Source: Candidatus Bathyarchaeota archaeon
GTDB lineage: Archaea; Thermoproteota; Bathyarchaeia; Bathyarchaeales; DTEX01
Length of the DNA stretch: 64,000 nucleotides
Direction: 5' to 3'
Assembly (NCBI GenBank): GCA_963714275.1
Contig: CAVQNT010000002.1
Span: 512,001-576,000 of the forward strand
Shown here piece after piece: positions 15,434 to 53,142 of this stretch. A program made the translations under genes and the position numbers. A model generated the notes under the pieces. It searched no databases. It was given only the letters and a program-made list of their open reading frames with translations, and was not told where the DNA came from. Positions within the stretch are counted from its first letter, which is position 1. Every line of letters begins with the position of its first letter.

Positions 15434-17174
15434 TTGAATTTTGGCTATTCATGCATGAGGGATTGCATGTCGGTTCTCAAATACTCAGAAATGCGGAACT
15501 GGGACATCATTGTCGACTCCGAAGCAATTCCATCCGAAAAGTATGCAGCGCAAGAATTCCAGCATTTTTTTGAACAAGCCACAGACATTCTTCTTCCTGT
15601 GCATAATTCTAACGAAAAAGCTTCTAACCATGTCTACATTGGTAAGAGCGCTGCGTTGAGTGAAAGCGGCATCACGGTTGACGCTTCTAAGTTAGGCGAA
15701 GAAGGTTTACACATAATCATAAAAGATGATGTTTTAGTCATTGTTGGGGGAAGACCCAGAGGCACGCTTTACGGGGTATACCAGTTCATCGAAGACGAGC
15801 TGGAGTTCGGTTTCTGACCCATGACCACACGCATGTTCCCGATTCTTCTAAGGCAAAGTTACATTGCAGAGAATACGTCTACAAGCCTCCGTTCAGTTTC
15901 CGTTGGAGCTATTACGCGGAAAACTCGAAACATCCCGAATTCGCAGTGAGACTACGTGTAAACACGGTCACAACTGACGAGAAGCTGGGAGGTAAAACAG
16001 GTCAGAACCTCATCAGCCACTCGTTTCACAAGCTGGTCCCATTCAGCAAGTACGGAAAGGACCATCCGGAGTATTACGCCTTGGTTGACGGCAAACGGGA
16101 CACGAACACGGCTTGGAGCGGTCCACAGCTGTGCGTGACGAACCCCGAGGTAGTCAAGGTTGTAGCTGAAGCTGCAATCCGTTTTTTGGATGAACACCAA
16201 TTTAGTAACATTAGCGTCAGTCAGGCGGACACGGACAAGTACTGCTGTTGCGACAGGTGCCAAGAAATCAACATGTGCGAAGACACGCCTATGGGGTCTC
16301 AGCTGAGCTTTCGTTAACGCTGTTGCTGAGCTGGTCGAAAAGGCGCATCCGAACGTTAAAGTCGGAACGTTGTCTTACTGGTACACTCGGAAGCCGCCCA
16401 AGACCGTTCGACCGCGACGCAATGTTCAGATTCAGCTCTGCAGCATTGAGTGTTGCACTTTGCATCCGATTGATGACCCAGACTGTCCGAGGAACACCGA
16501 GTTCTGTCACGACGTGAACGAGTGGGGCAAGATTTGCGACGACATTTGGATTTGGAACTACAACACCAATTTCACCGCTTACGACCTGCCCTTCCCGAAT
16601 CTGCGAAGCATCGGTCCGAACGTGCGCTATTTCCTACGCAACAAGGGGAAAGGCGTGTTCATGCAAGCAAACGGGAACGGAACCTCAGGCGAACTTTCTG
16701 ACCTACGGAACTACGTTATTTCGCGGTTGCTGTGGAATCCCGATCTTGACGACCAAAAACTAATTGAAGAGTTTGTGCAGTCTGCATTACAAGTCTGCTG
16801 CTCAGCCGATTTTGGATTACATCGAAATGTTGCATGACAACGCTGAGGAGTCAGGCGTGCATCCAAACTGTTTCCCCAAGCCTGAGGAGGTTGGGCTTCG
16901 CCCCGAAATAGCCCGCAAAGCCCTCGATTTCTTTAACAGGGCATTGGAGCTTGCACACGATGAAGCCTGTCTATGCGAGGGTGGAGAAGGCTTCCATTTG
17001 CGCCTACAGAGCCATGATTGAGGCAGGAGGCGCCTTGACTGAGGTTGAGTTAAGTCTCTCGTTGACCATTACATTGCGTTGTGCCAGCGTTACGACATGA
17101 CGTATGCTGCGGAACACAAAGAAGCTTCCCAGTTCTTCGAAAAGCTCAAGCAGCGGGTAAAGGACGCTTCGTGA
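15434..17174 (+). CDS. DUF4838-family glycoside-hydrolase-like protein (about four apparent frameshifts)
   Basis: GH67/hexosaminidase-like N-domain (GGRPRGTLYGVY), HPEYYAL..G.R, QLCVTNPEV, CCCDRC, LLWNP. Confidence 0.75.
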
Positions 17175-44878: not shown

Positions 44879-45556
44879 ATGAAACTGCCTTATCTGGAAA
44901 AGATTGGTCAGCGTGGAGATATCACAGTTTGGTCAGTTGATGGGATCTATGTCCGAAGGAATTTAGATGAAGAATTCACGAATTTCGGGCAGCAATATCG
45001 GTTCGAGTGCATTCCTGAAAACGAGTTTTGGATTGATAGAGAAGCTAGTCCAGATGAACAGCAATTTTACATCGACCACCTTTTAATGGAGTATCATCTC
45101 ATGAAAAAGGGTGTTCCTTATGTTAAGGCGCTTGAGTTTGCTGATCGCAAAGAGAGATCTGAGCGAAAGAAAGTCGATGGAATTCCGCCCGACCGGTCAA
45201 AAGGAGAAGTCAGCCCAACAATTGTGCACCTCCAGGTTTTAACAAAAACGGATGATGTGACAATATGGCTCATTAACGGTCGATTAGTGCGAGACTGGTT
45301 CGATATCGACTTTACAGAAGGCGGACATGACTTGGTTTACAAATTTGTGCCTAAAGAAGAAGTGTGGATTGACAACGATGTTGAACCTGAAGAAAGATCC
45401 TATATTCTCCTTCATGAACTGCACGAACGTAATCTCATGAAAAAAGGATTGTCGTACAGTGAGGCCCATGCGGATTCAAGTCAGCTTGAGTACCACGTAA
45501 GGCATCATCCAGAGGAACTCTCTATAACCTTAGAGAAAGAAATCAAAGAGAAATAA
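44879..45556 (+). CDS. Hypothetical protein with internal duplication and HELHE motif
   Basis: Two ~70-aa repeats (W.(V/I)(D/N)G..VR...D..FT..G......P..E.WID......E....H...E..LMKKG..Y..A). Confidence 0.75.
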   Translation: MKLPYLEKIGQRGDITVWSVDGIYVRRNLDEEFTNFGQQYRFECIPENEFWIDREASPDEQQFYIDHLLMEYHLMKKGVPYVKALEFADRKERSERKKVDGIPPDRSKGEVSPTIVHLQVLTKTDDVTIWLINGRLVRDWFDIDFTEGGHDLVYKFVPKEEVWIDNDVEPEERSYILLHELHERNLMKKGLSYSEAHADSSQLEYHVRHHPEELSITLEKEIKEK

Positions 45557-45650
45557 AAAAAACTTTTTCCATAATAATATTATCAATATAGGACATCTGC
45601 CTGATGAAAGATAAGGCTTAAGTTAGACTTGAATGTTGAAAGGGTATTTG

Positions 45651-45773
45651 GCGGGGGTACCCGAGCCAGGTCTAAATAGAGGGAAACAGACACACAACCC
45701 CCTAAGACAAGGGGGAGGACTTAAGATCCTCTGGCGAAGGCCTCCGTGGGTTCAAGTCCCACCCCCCGCACCA
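45651..45773 (+). tRNA. tRNA-Leu(TAA) with 35-nt intron in the D-arm (45676-45710)
   Basis: GCGGGGG/CCCCCGC acceptor stem, GAGGA-CTTAAGA-TCCTC anticodon arm, long variable arm, CCA; GTCT/AGAC central helix with 3-nt bulges. Confidence 0.92.
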
Positions 45774-45838
45774 TTTATATATAAAGTATAGGGGGGTTTG
45801 TCCAGAGGGCATTAACGTCGCTGTGGGCTTCAATATTT

Positions 45839-47078
45839 TCACTTCCTAAGGATTTTGACTCCGTTAAAGTCGCATACGAATTCGAAGCCTGCATCCACGA
45901 AGGCGCAGACATCTACTTCAGTTTTGGCTACTCGTGAAACGTATTCTTGCTGGTCTTTAAAGAGCTCCTCTGCAAGTTGCACGTAGATCAAGGTGTTCTT
46001 AATGTTTTTGTGGCCAAGGGTCTGCATGACGTGCAGGATGTCTTTGGTTTTATGGTATTCCCATGTGCCCTTCCAGTGCCGAAATGTATGGAACGTTATT
46101 TGCTTCAGTCTTGGGTTTTTTAGTTTGTTAGCCATGCGTTTTCGCTGCTGGTTGAAATTGTCTCGGTGATGATCCAAGGGTTGATTGGGGGCGGAGAACA
46201 CTTTTTCTCCGTAGGTTTTTGGCAGATTCTCAAGCATTAATGCGAGTTTTTGGCTTATGTGGCAGATTCTTGGGTTGGAACGTTTTTCCGCCGTAATTCT
46301 GACTACTTTTGAGACTATGTCTATGTCAGTACATTTGGCTGACCACGCTTCACCTGATCGTGCTCCGGTTTCCTTGAGGAATTGGAGGAATGTTCCCATT
46401 CGTTTGCTGCAACCGGCGATTAATTGGTCGATTTCGCTTTCAGTTGGGATAAAAGGAATTTTGTGTATGCCCTCATATCGTGGTGGTTCCCATTTTCCTC
46501 CAACCATTTTGAGAAATGATGAATAGGCATCGACAGCATTCGCCTTTCTTCCTTCACTCCACGGCTGTTTAGCTATGACTGCCTTAACTGATTCTGGGTC
46601 ATATAGGTCGACTCCTCGTTTCACAAGTACTTTTAGGAGTTTTGATCTTCCCACGATTGTTGTTTCACTGTAGCCTTCTTTTTTAAGCCACCAGACATAA
46701 TCGATAATTTTGCCTTTGATGTCAGCTGCTGTTGTTGTGGCCTCCCGCTGGCCTGTTTCCTGTCGGGTTTCTACTTTTTCCAAGTTTTTCGTCACTCCGT
46801 CAGCAACGCATACTTGGTACCTTAAAGTATGCTGGTTCTCCTTTTTTATCGCTTTGAAAAGGATCAGAAAACCGGAAGCCACAGTCACGGCAGAGCCACC
46901 TCTGAATTTTCTCGTCAAGATAATTTCGGAATCCGTCTTTCCAAACTCTGGATCCGCCACATTCTGGGCATGTGGGGGGCTGGTGCAGGCCGACGCTATG
47001 CATGTCGGACTTCCCGTCTGGGGTTTGAACCTGCTTTGGTGAAAAGGAGACGCCAACGGAGTTGTGGAAGCCAGCCAC
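45839..47078 (-). CDS. Tyrosine recombinase/integrase with N-terminal Zn ribbon (frameshift at ~46845)
   Basis: GARSGE, K, FHTFRH, LGH and Y catalytic residues intact; CPECG..KDG.R...QRWLCRDCG.RFS in overlapping ORF 46800..47078. Confidence 0.92.
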
Positions 47079-47105
47079 TCCCCTGCCTATCTTCTACTTT
47101 AAGGC

Positions 47106-47367
47106 TTAGGCTTCTCTACTTGGCGAAAAGAACAGTTCATCCGGCACGTTGCCCAGGACTTTTATGAAGCCTTCAGATTTGCAGAACTCTAAGACATGGC
47201 TGAACAACGGATCCTGCGAATTGCTGAAACATTTTATAAAGCCGAACCTACCAGTGAAGACTCGAAGTCTCGATGCCTTCAACGGTTTCCCTCATTTGGT
47301 AGGCGCCGGTTCTGCACCACTTCGCGTACTCTTCAAGGTCTTCCCAAGACTCCACTAAACTAACCAA
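47106..47367 (-). CDS. Unannotated 86-aa protein upstream of the integrase
   Basis: GGTGA RBS and TTG start; MVSLVESWEDLEEYAKWCRTG...EGIELRVFTGRFGFIK...PDELFFSPSREA after removing one base from AG(A)CT at 47266-47270. Confidence 0.7.
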
Positions 47368-47420
47368 TTATGTCACCTTGAACATTTGTTGAAACAAAAC
47401 TATAAGACATTTCTGTCCCC

Positions 47421-47626
47421 CACAAAGTATACTATACTTTGTGAGCCTCTTCAAAGTATACTGTACTTTGGAGACCCTCGCAAAGTACACTATCAAGTTA
47501 TAACTATACTATTAAGAAGCGCAATCAAAGTTCAGCATGGCGAATATTAGAAAACCTAACATTCCTTGTTTCTTTCTTTTGTCGGGTTTGAGGATTATGT
47601 TGAAGACCTCAGCAAAGTACACTATC
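47421..47626. repeat. Palindromic CAAAGTAYACTRTACTTTG array (29-bp period) plus two half-sites
   Basis: CAAAG starts at 47423, 47452, 47481 and 47613; first copy is a perfect 11-bp inverted repeat CACAAAGTATA-C-TATACTTTGTG. Confidence 0.85.
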
Positions 47627-47722
47627 GGAATAAGCGGAGCCATTAGCCCAACTCTTGCAGCAATGATACACGAAGGAAACGCACTCTTGGTTGTACTCAA
47701 CTCAGCAAGACTGATCAGATAG
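47627..47722 (+). pseudogene. C-terminal fragment of a P1B heavy-metal ATPase
   Basis: GAISPTLAAMIHEGNALLVVLNSARLIR* resembles the final TM (HEG...V.LN..RL) of P1B ATPases. Confidence 0.7.
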
Positions 47723-47921
47723 GTTCTCTGAGAGTTCTGTTTTCAAACATGTCAAATTTTTGCTTCTGTTAACCTAGCTGACTAAGTTAATTAGGCAGTA
47801 TTCTTGATTGGTTCAGTCCCAGTGGTGCATGGACATGATAGAGGTAAACAATCGTGCGCTTGCGTGTGCGCAGCGTCCTTTCAGTTTTGTTATCTATTCT
47901 GGATAACAAAGTGCACCAGTC

Positions 47922-50693
47922 TTGTCTTATGATAAAGCAGCCCTAGCCACTATTGAAGACCTCTATCATGAGCTTGGAACTGGGCCTGATGGTCTCTCAG
48001 ACCAAGAGGCTGGGCTTCGTTTACAAAAGTTTGGTCATAACGTTCTACCGACGGGTAAGAAAATCAGTCTACCTAGAAGGTTTCTCATTCAATTCAAGAA
48101 CATTTTCAACATCCTGCTATTGATTGCTTCATTCCTCTCATTTGTAAGTGGTCTGTTCTTCAATGATGCAGGCTCAATTCAAATGGGTCTCGCGATTCTC
48201 GTCGTGGTTTTTCTCAACGCTATTTTCAGTCTTTTCCAAGAGTACAGGGCTGAGAGGGCTGCGCAGGTCATACGGAGCTTCATCCCTAAAAAGACGAAGG
48301 TCATTAGAGATGGTCAAATGAAGGAAGTTGACGTGACTGACATAGTTCCCGGGGACATATTGGCTCTGGAAGAAGGTGACAGGGTGCCCGCTGACCTTAG
48401 GTTGACAAGCGCATTTGAGGTTTCCGTGGACAATTCGGTGCTGACTGGCGAGTCTGAGGCTCAGAGACGATTTGCCACAATGTCCTCGGGGATGTCGACA
48501 ACCACCAATGGGTTACATAACATACTGTTCGCAGGAACAACCTTGACCTCAGGTGTCGCCAGAGGTGTCATTCTGTCAACAGCAATGAATACTGAGTTCG
48601 GCAGGATTGTTTCGTTATCCAGCGAAGCCCATGAACCCCTGAGTGAACTTGAGAAAGACATTAACTACACTGCAAAGGTTGATCTTCTCGCGGCACTTCT
48701 TGTGAGCCTAATCTTTTTTTCTGCAGCTTTACTGATTGTTAGATTGAACCTCATACATAGTATCCTATTTGCAATCGGCGTCATGATATGTTTGGTGCCA
48801 GAAGGATTCCAGCTGACTGTTTCACTTTCCCTTGCCCTGACTGCACAAATAATGGCCAAAAGAAACGTGGTCGTGAAACGACTTTCCTCAGTTGAAACCG
48901 CTGGTTCAATGACTGTATTATGTGTGGACAAGACAGGCACAATCACAAGTGGAGAGATGATGGTGAAAAGAATCTGGGCAGCAGGAGAAGACTTTTGAAG
49001 TCACAGGTGACGGATATAGCCCAGATGGCTACATCAACTTCAATGGCAAGAAAATAAGTCGTCGCGAGTACCCGTCAATCTATAATCTCCTAGAGGTAAG
49101 CGCCTTCTGCAACAATGCTAAGCTAAACGCGCCCTCAGACAGAATTGGCAGATACACGGTTTTAGGAGACCCAACTGATGGAGACTTTCTCGTCTTCGCT
49201 GGAAAGGGTGACTTCAACGTTAGCAAAGCCTTGGCTGAAAACCAGAGAATTGGCTTAATCCCATTTAGTTCTCAGAGGAGGATGATGACAAGCATTCAAA
49301 AAGGTTCTGATGGAAAGATTACTGCTTTTACAAAGGGAGCTGGCCTTGAAGTGCTCAAACGATGCACCTATGTCTTCTACGATAATGATAGCGTGCCTTT
49401 AACAGATGAATTCAGAAGGGCAATAATGAAGCAGATGGATGATTTCGCCTTAGACGGCTTTCGGGTTCTTGCAATGGCGACGAAAATCCTTCCAAACGAA
49501 CCCGCAGAACTATCTCAAGGCATCGAAGAAGATATGACCTTTCTAGGTTTGGCCGCGCTACTTGATCCACCTAGACCTAAAGTAGAGGCTGCTGTCAAAG
49601 AAGCCAGAAGCGCAGGTATAAAGGTCATTATGCTGACGGGAGATCATGAGCTCACTGCGTATTCCATTTCAAAGAAAGTGGGAATCATAACTTCAGAGAT
49701 CAAGAGGTGGTCACCGGACAAGATCTCAACCAGATGAATGACAATGACTTGGCTGCTATGTTCGTTAAAGGCAACTGCGTATTTGCGAGGATAGCGCCCG
49801 AGCAGAAGGTTAGGATAGTGCATGTCTTGAAATCCATGGGAGAGGTGGTGGCAGTAACAGGGGATGGAGTGAATGACTCCCCAGCACTTATTGAAGCAAA
49901 TGTAGGCATATCTATGGGAGCCGGGGGAACGGATGTGGCAAGAGAGTCTGCGGACATAGTTCTACTGGATAACGATTTCACGTCTATAATAGAAGGGGTT
50001 AGGCTGGGAAGGTCAATGTTTGACAACCTGAGGAAGTTTGTCTACTACGTCTTTACGCACAACTGGGCTGAGCTTCTCGCCTTCATTGTTTTCGTCTTAA
50101 TTCAGTCTCCACTGCCTTTGCTAGTTGTCCAAGTGCTAGCAATAGACTTAGCGTTGGATGTGTTTCCTTCCCTTTCCTTAATAATGGAGCCTCCTGAGCC
50201 GGATGTTATGAAGAAGCCGCCCAGGAAAAGTGGGACGAGACTAATCAATTTTTCGACACTGCTGAGAAGTTGCTATGTCGGCGTGATTGTATCGGCTTGT
50301 GCAATCTTCTGGGCCTTTAACGTCTGGGGGAGTGGAGGATGGACTATGGGTAATAACGCAACGCTCGATCCTATATTATATGCCAGAGGAACGACAATCG
50401 TCATGGCAGGAATAATGATTGGTCAACTAGGAAATCTCTTCGCCTCCCGAACAGATCTAAAATCAGCACTCACGCTCAATCCGCTTAGAAATAGATGGCT
50501 CTTCCCCGCGATATTTGCTGAGTTTTGTATTATGATAGCAGTTATCTATCTGCCCCTCCTTCAGCCCCTATTCGGGACGGCTCCCCTTCTTCTATCGGAT
50601 TGGTTGTTCCTGTCAATATTAGCTCCCTTGGCTTTACTCTTAGAGGAACTAAGAAAGCTGTTAATGCATAGAATAGATCTTAAAATTGATTGA
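47922..50693 (+). CDS. Cation-transporting P-type ATPase (P2, Ca2+-like), apparent frameshifts at ~48991 and ~49700
   Basis: LTGES, VPEG, DKTGTIT, GDPTD, KGA, MLTGD, TGDGVND. Confidence 0.9.
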
Positions 50694-50750
50694 AATCAAT
50701 TAATAGAATATAGATTTTGGTAATCCTATTATTAAGAGCTGAATCAACTA

Positions 50751-51146
50751 TTACTTGTTTGGTTCAAATTTATTTGATATGAAGGCTGCCAAAGCGCTTA
50801 TAATGTCTTCTTCGTTTGCTTTCTCAATGAACTTGTCAAGGTCGACTTCATTCAATATGATGGCTAGATAGGCTCTTGGGGCTAGTCGGTATAGTTGAGA
50901 TTCGAAGCCAGCTTGAGTTTTGCGGGCACCGATTCTTTCAATGTAGCCTTTTTCTACTAGGCTTCTGACTCGACGGTTTATCACTGAATACTTGGTATAT
51001 CTCAATGCTCTTCGGATTCTTACTTTTTTACAGACGTCATAGATGGTTAAGGGTCCTTCTTCAGCGAGAACCCAGAATATTGCCTTGTTCAGTCTTGCTT
51101 CTCTGCCTTTGAAGATCGAAAGTCTCGGGTTCCCATTTTCTATCAT
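50751..51146 (-). CDS. Winged helix-turn-helix DNA-binding protein
   Basis: GPLTIYDV...YSVINRRVRSLVEKGYI...YRLAPRAY. Confidence 0.75.
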   Translation of the reverse strand: MIENGNPRLSIFKGREARLNKAIFWVLAEEGPLTIYDVCKKVRIRRALRYTKYSVINRRVRSLVEKGYIERIGARKTQAGFESQLYRLAPRAYLAIILNEVDLDKFIEKANEEDIISALAAFISNKFEPNK

Positions 51147-51615
51147 GTCCCCACATGCCCTTAAACAACTGGGACGCTGTCAAGTCTGCCAGAAAGGGAG
51201 ACTTTGTAGGGTCGGGTTTTTAGGCTTTTTACACAAATTTATGCAACACAATGTCCTATAGGTGGAAACGTTTCTGTATGCAGAAATGCCCTATAGGGAA
51301 ATTGTGCTGGTGAAGCTGATTTAAGCTTGTTACACATTTTCATGTTGATTTCGTCAATTAGGCATGTACAGAAGTGGGGATTTGGTTGGGGTCTTTTTCG
51401 GGGTGCAGAAACGATTTTCCTGAGGGTCTAAGATTTGTTTTTATATCCTTTTATGTGCTTAGATGCTTTGTAGGGGGAAACAATGATTATTAAAACTTTT
51501 TGAATTAGTATATTCAGGGTTCACCTAGTGCTGATGATTAGCTAGCTAACTTCCAACATGTATCTTCTGAAATCAATATATCTTAAAAAGTAAAATAAAT
51601 ACAAGGTCATAAATC

Positions 51616-52698
51616 ATGAAAAAACATACTTCTAAATTTTTAAAAAATAAGCAGGACGTAATAAGGACAGTAGATGGAAAACAAATTGCTGTAAAAAAAC
51701 TGGATGAATTCATATTGACAATGATGGATTCTGTGAAAATACCGGGTCTGTCAATTGCTATCATAAACAATGCAAAAGTAGTTTATCATCGAGCCTTTGG
51801 TGTAAAAAAAATCAATACTTTAGAAAAGGTTAATGAACAAACCATTTTTGAGGCTGGATCTATGTCCAAACCTCTCTTTGCATATTTTATTATGAAGCAG
51901 GTAGAGAAAGGGATACTAGATTTAGATAAACCTCTTTATGAATACTTGCCTTATCAGGATATTGCATACGATGACAGATACAAGCTAATTACTGCCAGAA
52001 TGGTACTTTGTCATACCTCAGGGTTTCCTAATTGGCGTAATGATAAATTAGATATTAAGTTCACCCCAGGAACAGCGTTTCAGTATTCAGGTGAAGGATA
52101 TCAATATCTGGCAAAGGTTGTAGCATACTTAAGAGGGACTGATTTTAAAGGATTGGATAGTATATTTCAAAAAGAGGTAGCTGAACCCTTAGGTGCTCAA
52201 CAATTGCACTACATTTGGAATGATTACATTGCACAACACAAAGCCACAGGTCACAGAGATGGGAAAGCAACCGATAATGGACCAATAGAAAAGAAACCTT
52301 GGATTTGCCATTTAGTTCCATTCCAAGGAGACCCAAATATATTTGGAGCAGCTTACAGTTTACATACTGAAGCGACCAATTATGCTAAATTTTTAATTGC
52401 GATGATGCAAGAAAAGGGGATTACCAAAGAAACATGGGATGAGATGTTGAAGGAACAGGTGAGTTTACCCATCGACAACGAATATAGGAAAAATGGTATA
52501 ACGGGTTGGAGTCTTGGATTTGCCATTGAGCCTACTTCGAATGGTGTTAGGTATATACACGATGGGAGCAACGGTGATTTCCAATCATATTGTCATTTTT
52601 ACAAAGAGAAAGACTATGGAATTGTTTTTTTCAGTAATTCAGATAAAATCATTTCAACTCAGTTTATTCAGAGATTAAGTGCGTTTCTTGAAGAGTAA
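51616..52698 (+). CDS. Serine hydrolase, beta-lactamase class C-like family
   Basis: IPGLSIA, SMSK (SxxK), LCHTSG, FQYSGEGY, HDG; AT-rich. Confidence 0.88.
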   Translation: MKKHTSKFLKNKQDVIRTVDGKQIAVKKLDEFILTMMDSVKIPGLSIAIINNAKVVYHRAFGVKKINTLEKVNEQTIFEAGSMSKPLFAYFIMKQVEKGILDLDKPLYEYLPYQDIAYDDRYKLITARMVLCHTSGFPNWRNDKLDIKFTPGTAFQYSGEGYQYLAKVVAYLRGTDFKGLDSIFQKEVAEPLGAQQLHYIWNDYIAQHKATGHRDGKATDNGPIEKKPWICHLVPFQGDPNIFGAAYSLHTEATNYAKFLIAMMQEKGITKETWDEMLKEQVSLPIDNEYRKNGITGWSLGFAIEPTSNGVRYIHDGSNGDFQSYCHFYKEKDYGIVFFSNSDKIISTQFIQRLSAFLEE

Positions 52699-52806
52699 AT
52701 TAAATTCTGACTATAATACGCTAGTCAGCTGACTAAATTTTACTTAACCTTTTTAACTGAATCCAATAATAGTTGATATGGATTCTTGATACCGGAGGAT
52801 AAATGC

Positions 52807-53142
52807 ATGGATGAGAAGCTTTTAGCGCCTTGTGGCACATACTGCGGAACATGTCACGCTCTGAATAGTGAGTAGAAGCCAAGTTGCTTAGGATGCGGAA
52901 ATCAGAATGGACAACTTTTCTGGGGTAAATGCAAACTATATGCTTGTGCAACGGGCAGAGTTGAACATTGCGGAATGTGTGAGGAATTTCCGTGTGACCT
53001 TTTTGTCGATCAATATGATCCTGCTGAGGGACCAAAAAGCGCCTTTACGAGAGCTGGACTTTTAGCATATCGCAAGAAAGTGGGGTCATTAAAGTTCATT
53101 GAAATGTCCAAGAAACTTCATGAAGAAGAACAGAAAAAATAA
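52807..53142 (+). CDS. DUF3795-family Cys-rich protein (in-frame TAG at 52873)
   Basis: MDEKLLAPCGTYCGTC...E*KPSCLGC...CKLYAC...HCGMCEEFPC; not in the ORF track. Confidence 0.75.

Follow-up and report, generated by a model that had tools for sequence, protein, structure and literature searches.

The window analysed here, a stretch of 64,000 nucleotides, covers positions 512001-576000 of contig C2 in a 2.64-Mb Bathyarchaeia genome (C4, C5, C6, C7, C9, and C10 are other contigs of the same genome). It carries a mobile-element module consisting of a tRNA-Leu-like gene, a tyrosine integrase, a small gene of the 86-aa family, a repeat array, two ATPase genes in broken or partial form, and a gene for a winged helix-turn-helix (wHTH) protein of 131-133 aa, designated FAM1 (Table 1). 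Two other protein families recur in related modules: FAM5, a MarR-like wHTH protein, and FAM2, a small protein. Related modules were sought by BLAST of window positions 45001-53000 against the whole genome; 60 related genomes served as a comparison set, and IMG/VR loci were searched besides.

Table 1. Features of the module, in window coordinates
Feature	Position	Strand	Remarks
tRNA-Leu(UAA)-like gene, interrupted near the D arm	45651-45774	+	Integration target of the element
Tyrosine integrase, catalytic body	45839-46750	-	PF00589, E 5e-18; PHROG integrase families
Integrase, N-terminal Zn-ribbon part	46800-47078	-	CPECG...CRDCG ORF, in another frame than the body
86-aa family gene (TTG start)	47106-47367	-	Frame comparison with intact copies
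Conserved promoter block	47385-47420	-	TATA-like CTTATA at 47401-47406; putative promoter of the small-gene/integrase operon
Palindrome 1, CACAAAGTATACTATACTTTGTG	47421-47443		Putative promoter-proximal operator
Palindrome 2, CAAAGTATACTGTACTTTG	47452-47470		Putative operator
Third site, CAAAGTACACTATC	47481-47494		Half-palindromic: full left arm and N-TATC
Divergent TATA-like region and leader of small Zn-ribbon gene	47495-47599	+	Gene itself missing here
Fourth copy, same 14-mer as third site	47613-47626		Whole unit 47600-47626; rearrangement joint
P1B-type heavy-metal ATPase, orphan C-terminal fragment with stop	47627-47722	+	30-32 codons
P2-type cation ATPase, cargo	47922-50693	+	Pfam domains spread over three ORFs
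PadR/MarR-like wHTH protein (FAM1)	50751-51146	-	AlphaFold2 and Foldseek; proposed binder of the palindromes

A family of tRNA-integrated elements

The genome contains at least five paralogous array-bearing modules, those related to the window element lying at C10:21.1-22.8k, C6:368.7-370.3k, C2:304.1-308.2k (hereafter C2:304k), and C4:11.8-15.6k, and in addition remnants at C5:81.5-81.8k, C7:19.2k, and C2:361.08-361.22k (hereafter C2:361k). Clustering of ORFs gave a common gene order of FAM5, FAM2, FAM1, variable cargo, array, 86-aa gene, Zn-ribbon integrase, and tRNA, to which some copies add a small Zn-ribbon gene on the opposite strand before the array or a ParB-like gene after the 86-aa gene. 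The DNA module was found in 4 and the FAM1 protein in 8 of the 60 related genomes, and among IMG/VR loci the small gene was found at seven, six of which also carry the wHTH gene.

The tRNA-Leu gene matched the Rfam tRNA model at 45700-45762 with 25.9 bits, below the gathering score of 29, and ARAGORN made no call of it with or without its intron option; the acceptor halves and CCA were recognised by eye. The insertion near its D arm probably represents a non-canonical intron. In the window copy, C4 (tRNA at 15550-15625), C5 (81321-81431), and C7 (18947-19043), the 3′ end of a tRNA has an integrase gene or a remnant of one beside it. An exact second copy of the 25 nt that end tRNA-Leu (45750-45774), without a tRNA body, lies on a 9.9-kb contig at C9:8555-8579, and C2:577667-577684, beside a homologous element end, repeats 18 nt from the end of the C4 tRNA. 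Since the repeats at the element ends are thus tRNA 3′ ends, the att cores are the tRNA ends, 1.6 kb from the array. The att partners lie on the "wrong" contigs, which reflects either exchange between two element copies or an assembly misjoin. At C2:577613-577690, about 1.6 kb beyond the right edge of the window, the element end has the 3′ terminus of the C4 tRNA and not that of tRNA-Leu. A 9-bp match to the repeat arm, AAAGTATAG, follows the tRNA in the window and was considered as a further arm site; the 9-mer occurs 35 times in the genome, and the match was set aside as chance, a possibility that the original prediction had allowed for.

Cargo always lies between the FAM1 stop codon and the third site of the array, in blocks of several genes and 0.05-6 kb, and relative G052 has hardly any; that variable cargo begins next to the third site had been anticipated. 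Flanking segments are shuffled among copies, and at the far cargo border of six copies no conserved motif or second, attC-like site was found. In the window, the P2-type ATPase is a probable pseudogene; in relative G004 the gene is unbroken over at least 717 aa, with a gene for a PEP-utilising enzyme upstream. The cargo slot of another locus (L049:1908-2407, in G045) holds two small overlapping ORFs that by eye resemble a toxin-antitoxin pair. Because its 86-aa gene, integrase, and cargo genes are broken or partial, the window element is a defective, decaying mobile element integrated at tRNA-Leu.

The integrase operon and its promoter

The integrase, for which the genome has 11 matching places, is divided between two frames in the window, and in copy C6 (369088-370305) the Zn ribbon and the integrase body form one ORF of 406 aa. 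The region was compared with contigs of four runs from four studies (X1-X4), which are each shorter than the 3-kb stretch and give parts of the integrase gene little or no cover. One base is absent at 46842 in contigs of these other runs (4/4 in X1, less than half of the depth in X2 and X3), and without it the Zn ribbon and the integrase body would share one frame; the extra base in the window is due either to an error in a homopolymer or to a genuine inactivating mutation.

The small gene ends 13-28 nt before the integrase gene. Its window copy is broken by one extra base near 47268, as judged against the intact copies in C10, C6, C2:304k, and C4. The 86-aa family comprises 76 homologues, none with a Pfam domain, and always follows the array, with a further instance at L006:1645-1902; a contig scan with the family returned two loci, both among those found by other searches. 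Pfam and PHROG searches assigned the 86-aa protein to no family. Its AlphaFold2 model (pLDDT 90.7) is of alpha/beta type without a coiled coil, and a structural search gave no clear relative, the best matches being chains resembling ribosomal protein eL38 (Foldseek E 0.015, VIA Z 5.9). The 86-aa protein was considered as the binder of the repeats and not adopted, as it belongs to no family and the eL38-like matches are too weak to name a fold.

The promoter block is nearly identical in five genome copies and served as the anchor for site offsets. Its TATA-like element lies 14 nt from the array, close to the distance of about 15 bp first given. Since palindrome 1 is placed upstream of the BRE and covers neither the TATA box nor the start site, either repression or activation would be possible.

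Geometry and conservation of the repeat array

The four repeat copies were confirmed where they had been reported: a pair of 19-bp palindromes, a half-palindromic third site, and a repeat of the latter's 14-mer as the fourth copy. The spacing of 29 bp is exact, the CAAAG motifs starting at 47423, 47452, and 47481. The 14-mer with up to two mismatches gave 4 matches against 0.42 expected, a number reached in 0/100 shuffles, and the looser pattern CAAAGT-N7-ACTTTG with up to one mismatch gave 2 matches against 0.33 expected, which 5/100 shuffles equalled. Genome-wide (2.64 Mb), the exact 14-mer was found at only four places and the palindrome pattern at only two loci. Comparison across copies gives the full site as CAAAGTACA-C-TGTACTTTG, in which a single central base is flanked by arms of 9 bp. 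The initial reading of CAAAGT-N7-ACTTTG as a core site therefore covers real symmetric positions, but only a subset of them.

This geometry is conserved in the family. Half-sites start at +24, +53, and +82 from the promoter anchor in the window copy, C10, C2:304k, G004, and G007, and the arrays of C6 and C4 are shorter by exactly one 29-bp unit; the G013 array has the 29-bp spacing with an ambiguous anchor. Start-to-start spacing is 29 bp in all eight close copies (8/8) and in seven of nine distant arrays, the other two having 28 (L067) and 30 (L066). The arms vary in concert between copies, for example GTATAC...GTATAC versus GGACAC...GTGTCC, and the core of the half-site is GTA, GGA, GAA, GCA, or another sequence depending on the copy. 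The third site is present in nearly every array of the family at the same phase, as a full arm followed by N-T(A/G)TC or a close variant. Because it is kept in phase across arrays, the third "half copy" belongs to the family's conserved design and is no scar. At the distant loci L048, L064, L065, L050, and L067, a conserved AAAACGGACATAT-like motif follows the third site, and in the subfamily of the window AAGTTAYAACTTTAC stands in its place.

A winged-helix protein as the candidate binder

FAM1, encoded 3.3 kb from the array in the window, is predicted by AlphaFold2 (pLDDT 87.2) to adopt a wHTH fold with C-terminal helices, and Foldseek matched the model to MarR, PadR, LmrR, and BldR structures at probability 1.00, with E values from 2.5e-4. 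Pfam scores fell below the family cut-offs (TrmB, 22.7 bits against 25.6; MarR_2, 19.9 bits against 27), and the proposal is accordingly that FAM1 would work like a PadR/MarR regulator, with no claim of Pfam membership. A homodimer through the C-terminal helices was predicted with a score of 0.68 (best control 0.00), above a mark that 20/30 proteins solved as pairs and 1/23 proteins solved as single chains reach; at least 93% of contacts are shared between the runs, with partner pLDDT of at least 84. This result may reflect likeness to solved PadR/MarR dimers. By prediction, FAM1 is thus a dimeric wHTH protein of the kind that a PadR/MarR-type system uses.

The operator core covaries with FAM1 residues 51-55, which open the predicted recognition helix (residues 53-65), at 16 loci in nine classes, and as these are linked genes of mobile elements not every locus counts as independent evidence. 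The GTA core is paired with KY[ST] at five loci, and GAA with RYAS, GCA with [YH]YGN, and GGA with RYH at two loci each; the single-locus pairs are PYN-GGA, RYSV-GCGA, ERK-GACA, KYPS-GTTAT/GAGAT, and RYR-TGTC. The GTA loci do not form one clade on the FAM1 tree, so several separate co-changes would have been needed. Together with the fixed offset from the promoter, the covariation suggests a palindromic operator at a promoter that is matched to the specificity of its protein.

The 86-aa protein and the Zn-ribbon domain of the integrase are other, less likely candidate binders, and for the 86-aa protein no match to a DNA-binding fold was found. Copy C4 resembles C2:304k and C6 in its backbone and in the Zn ribbon of its integrase, and differs from them in both its palindrome and its FAM1. 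That the Zn ribbons are alike though the palindromes differ counts against the integrase Zn ribbon as the binder. A second set of dyads, different from those of the array and of AATGyCCTATAGG and TTTCT...AGAAA types, lies upstream of the FAM1 gene (51147-51420), in a region conserved in other copies; the array of C4 has an odd palindrome that the AATGyCCTATAGG type resembles. These different dyads, and the 3.3 kb between the FAM1 gene and the array, count against FAM1 as the binder.

The fourth copy and the ATPase fragment

The fourth copy belongs to a 27-nt unit that is 85% identical to 47468-47494, which is to say spacer plus third site. It ends a 132-bp segment that starts directly after the CTATC of a third site and closes with spacer and CAAAGTACACTATC; window positions 47490-47626 are 91% identical to C2:361078-361215. 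The similarity of the two stops at the last base of the fourth copy, beyond which their flanks differ. The interior of the segment corresponds to the DNA upstream of the Zn-ribbon gene of intact copies together with the first codons of that gene, window positions 47495-47599 matching the region upstream of it in C10, C2:304k, and C5; spacer-like sequence takes over at TTGAAGA, a heptamer similar to the TTGGAGA of the array. The DNA beyond the site at C2:361k may, to judge from a PVC motif, be the remainder of a degraded Zn-ribbon gene, of which a 3′ piece lies at a distance of 1.5 kb. Among the 60 relatives, no flank-to-flank match was found that would represent an empty site for the C2:361k segment.

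The ATPase fragment is the C-terminal transmembrane segment of a P1B ATPase, and all catalytic parts are absent here. Its last 29-32 residues are 72-100% identical to six proteins that align only from SGAISP on. Four of these are P-type ATPases of 559-626 aa with E1-E2_ATPase and Hydrolase domains (72-84% identity), and P0001 (137 aa), identical over 29 residues, suggests that a longer form of this P1B gene exists. A metagenome scan for the longer gene gave 14 loci, with 30-50% identity for the best and no close match among them, and a search of the genome found no further part of the gene. The homology begins 0-6 nt after the fourth copy, as had been proposed: it is clear from SGAISP (47633), a weaker tblastn alignment (P0002) reaches 47624, and a search for homology continuing upstream through the repeat found none. 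These limits put the joint where the fourth copy ends, within 47624-47633.

Contigs of all four runs bridge 47626/47627 (X1, 47540-47844; X2, 47522-48288; X3, 47423-47722; X4, 47529-47947), and the joint is a real, fixed, old fusion. The joint-bearing contigs of X2 and X4 stop matching the window at 47522 and 47529, with 75-76 letters remaining, which hints at strain variants with a different left side. Simple tandem duplication was rejected as the origin of the fourth copy, the sequence after copy 4 being unlike that after copy 3. To the right of the fourth copy, synteny was found only with G004; it sets in where the P2-type ATPase begins, and the gene before it in G004 is unrelated. The simplest history for the joint would be a deletion through short homology, involving element copies that were neighbours or in tandem.

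Operators or recombination sites

With a probability of about 0.68, the array consists of three phased putative operators in the control region of the small-gene/integrase operon of a defective, tRNA-Leu-integrated element. FAM1 dimers would bind the sites, each arm (CAAAG plus a variable triplet) being read by one recognition helix. Three dimers 29 bp apart would occupy the DNA that begins immediately upstream of the integrase operon's BRE/TATA and reaches the TATA-like region belonging to the Zn-ribbon gene, and would set the expression of both divergent transcription units, with the third, half-palindromic site acting as a built-in weaker site. The fourth copy would be a duplicated unit of spacer and third site at the end of a promoter/leader segment, not a working capture site, and would mark the old rearrangement in which the Zn-ribbon gene was lost and the P1B cargo gene was cut to its present length. 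Operators beside a TATA box had been named as an alternative in the original prediction, and the fixed geometry and the covariation with an element-encoded wHTH protein support that alternative at the level of sequence comparison.

The reading first preferred was that the half-sites are crossover scars at an att or capture array of the integrase, in the manner of an integron or a dif module. The sites would then be recombination sites (attI-, dif-, or secondary-att-like) of the Zn-ribbon integrase, the third capturing cargo and the fourth copy being a crossover product. Such a role would fit the position of cargo directly beside the third site in every copy, the end of P1B homology at the repeat, and the 132-bp segment, which is circularly permuted relative to the order of third site and promoter and occurs twice with different flanks. 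It would also fit several breaks of homology within about 2 nt of the third-site TATC (window copy 4, C6 versus C2:304k, the left end of C2:361k, and C5), near which the homology of G013 and G007 with the rest ends as well; other breaks lie at about +22 (G004) and at +45-50 (C4 and C6). The dyad itself is of a different build: att, dif, and attI sites have arms around an overlap of 6-8 bp, whereas these 9-bp arms enclose a single base. The integrases abut tRNAs, and the repeats that an att site would place at both element ends are tRNA 3′ ends (25 nt and 18 nt). The half site is in phase even in compact cargo-less elements such as G052, and six copies contain no attC-bounded cassettes. No split or alternative joints at the sites were found in the contigs of the four runs, among the 24 of 145 loose ends listed, and as contigs drop rare forms, rare joints could escape this check. 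If C2:361k simply continues a degraded Zn-ribbon gene, one supposed junction is gone as well. Recombination sites are therefore very unlikely, and neither the scars nor the integron likeness is maintained.

The clustering of breaks at the third-site edge, the invariable start of cargo at that edge, and the presence of the 132-bp segment twice with different flanks go beyond what operators alone explain. It is conceivable, at odds as long as those of recombination sites, that the third site doubles as a hot spot of recombination or breakage for cargo, either as an attI-like entry used by the integrase or as one created by the bound regulator. In that case the 132-bp segment would have been mobilised as a mini-cassette, and the P1B tail would be a fragment taken up by capture.

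A role in plasmid-type maintenance is unlikely, though somewhat less so. The array would be an adaptor-bound centromere for ParB partition or a set of replication iterons beside an AT-rich stretch, and it is indeed repeated, phased, and adjacent to AT-rich DNA. C2:304k and C4 encode a protein with ParB_N and HTH_ParB right after the small gene, but ParB is found in only two of the five array-bearing genome copies, and neither ParA nor a replication initiator was recognised in the modules examined. FAM1 has matches to a replication-relaxation family (E 0.012) and a PHROG replication initiator (E 0.031), which are far below thresholds, and the distance from the array to the TATA-like promoter block is fixed in all copies. 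Intermediate between these in its improbability is a role of the wHTH protein and its sites as accessory integration or excision factors instead of a transcription switch. The analogy would be to Orf3 of the haloarchaeal virus SNJ2, whose integrase is, in the available part of the report, co-transcribed with two small proteins that both promote integration (PMC5861418), and the integrase here is likewise associated with a wHTH gene and a small gene. The array is, however, fixed to the promoter, and the integrase gene separates it from the tRNA att core, 1.6 kb away; the wHTH gene, moreover, is not part of the integrase operon but is situated upstream of the array. Operators thus remain the preferred reading of the array, and the "capture array" becomes a testable regulator-operator pair for an undescribed family of Bathyarchaeia mobile elements.

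Comparison with known systems

To our knowledge, Bathyarchaeia have no cultured model. The module was not found in the portions available of the literature on Bathyarchaeia integrase elements and archaeal integrative-element operators, and in the accessible part of a review of archaeal tyrosine recombinases (PMC8371274) the terms "zinc" and "arm-type" do not appear and "operator" is used only of phiCh1 and lambda repressors. The order of wHTH gene, array, small gene, and Zn-ribbon integrase can serve as a marker for such elements in metagenomes, and the breakpoints clustered at the third site bear on how cargo is exchanged.

Like integron attI/attC and Xer/dif systems, the module has inverted repeats beside a tyrosine recombinase gene and variable genes that start at one site; unlike them, it has no 6-8-bp overlap and no attC-like partner, its att sites are tRNA ends, and its repeats keep a fixed promoter register. 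The OR/OL operators of phage lambda are groups of neighbouring dyad sites, placed between divergent transcription units and bound by one dimeric protein, and in the AspA-ParB-ParA system of plasmid pNOB8 a small wHTH protein binds a palindromic site upstream of a small-gene/ParB operon. Genes for lysis or lysogeny, as in lambda, were not identified here, and unlike pNOB8 the family has ParB in two of five copies and no ParA was found.

By layout alone, the closest published analogue of the gene arrangement appears, from the accessible part of the report, to be the integrase operon of SNJ2, in which Int is co-transcribed with Orf2 and the MarR-like wHTH protein Orf3 (PMC5861418). Like SNJ2 as described there (PMC5861418), the present system is a tRNA-integrating archaeal element with an integrase, a small protein, and a MarR-like wHTH protein tied to the module. 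The present wHTH gene differs in lying outside the operon, upstream of the array, the integrase in its N-terminal Zn ribbon, and the small protein in having neither a coiled coil nor a known fold.

The nearest counterparts of the proposed regulator are PadR/MarR proteins such as B. subtilis PadR (operator complex 5X11), L. lactis LmrR, and Sulfolobus BldR (3F3X), which combine an N-terminal wHTH domain with C-terminal dimerisation helices, as predicted for FAM1, and which, as proposed here, act beside a promoter at palindromic sites whose half-site centres are about one helical turn apart. The window system differs in having no significant Pfam membership, in its three sites at a strict 29-bp phase with the third always half-palindromic, and in residing on an archaeal mobile element with at least nine specificity variants. 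These matched protein/operator variants at fixed geometry form a natural data set on winged-helix DNA reading, and the system is most likely a mobile-element regulator with its operators, of a familiar type.
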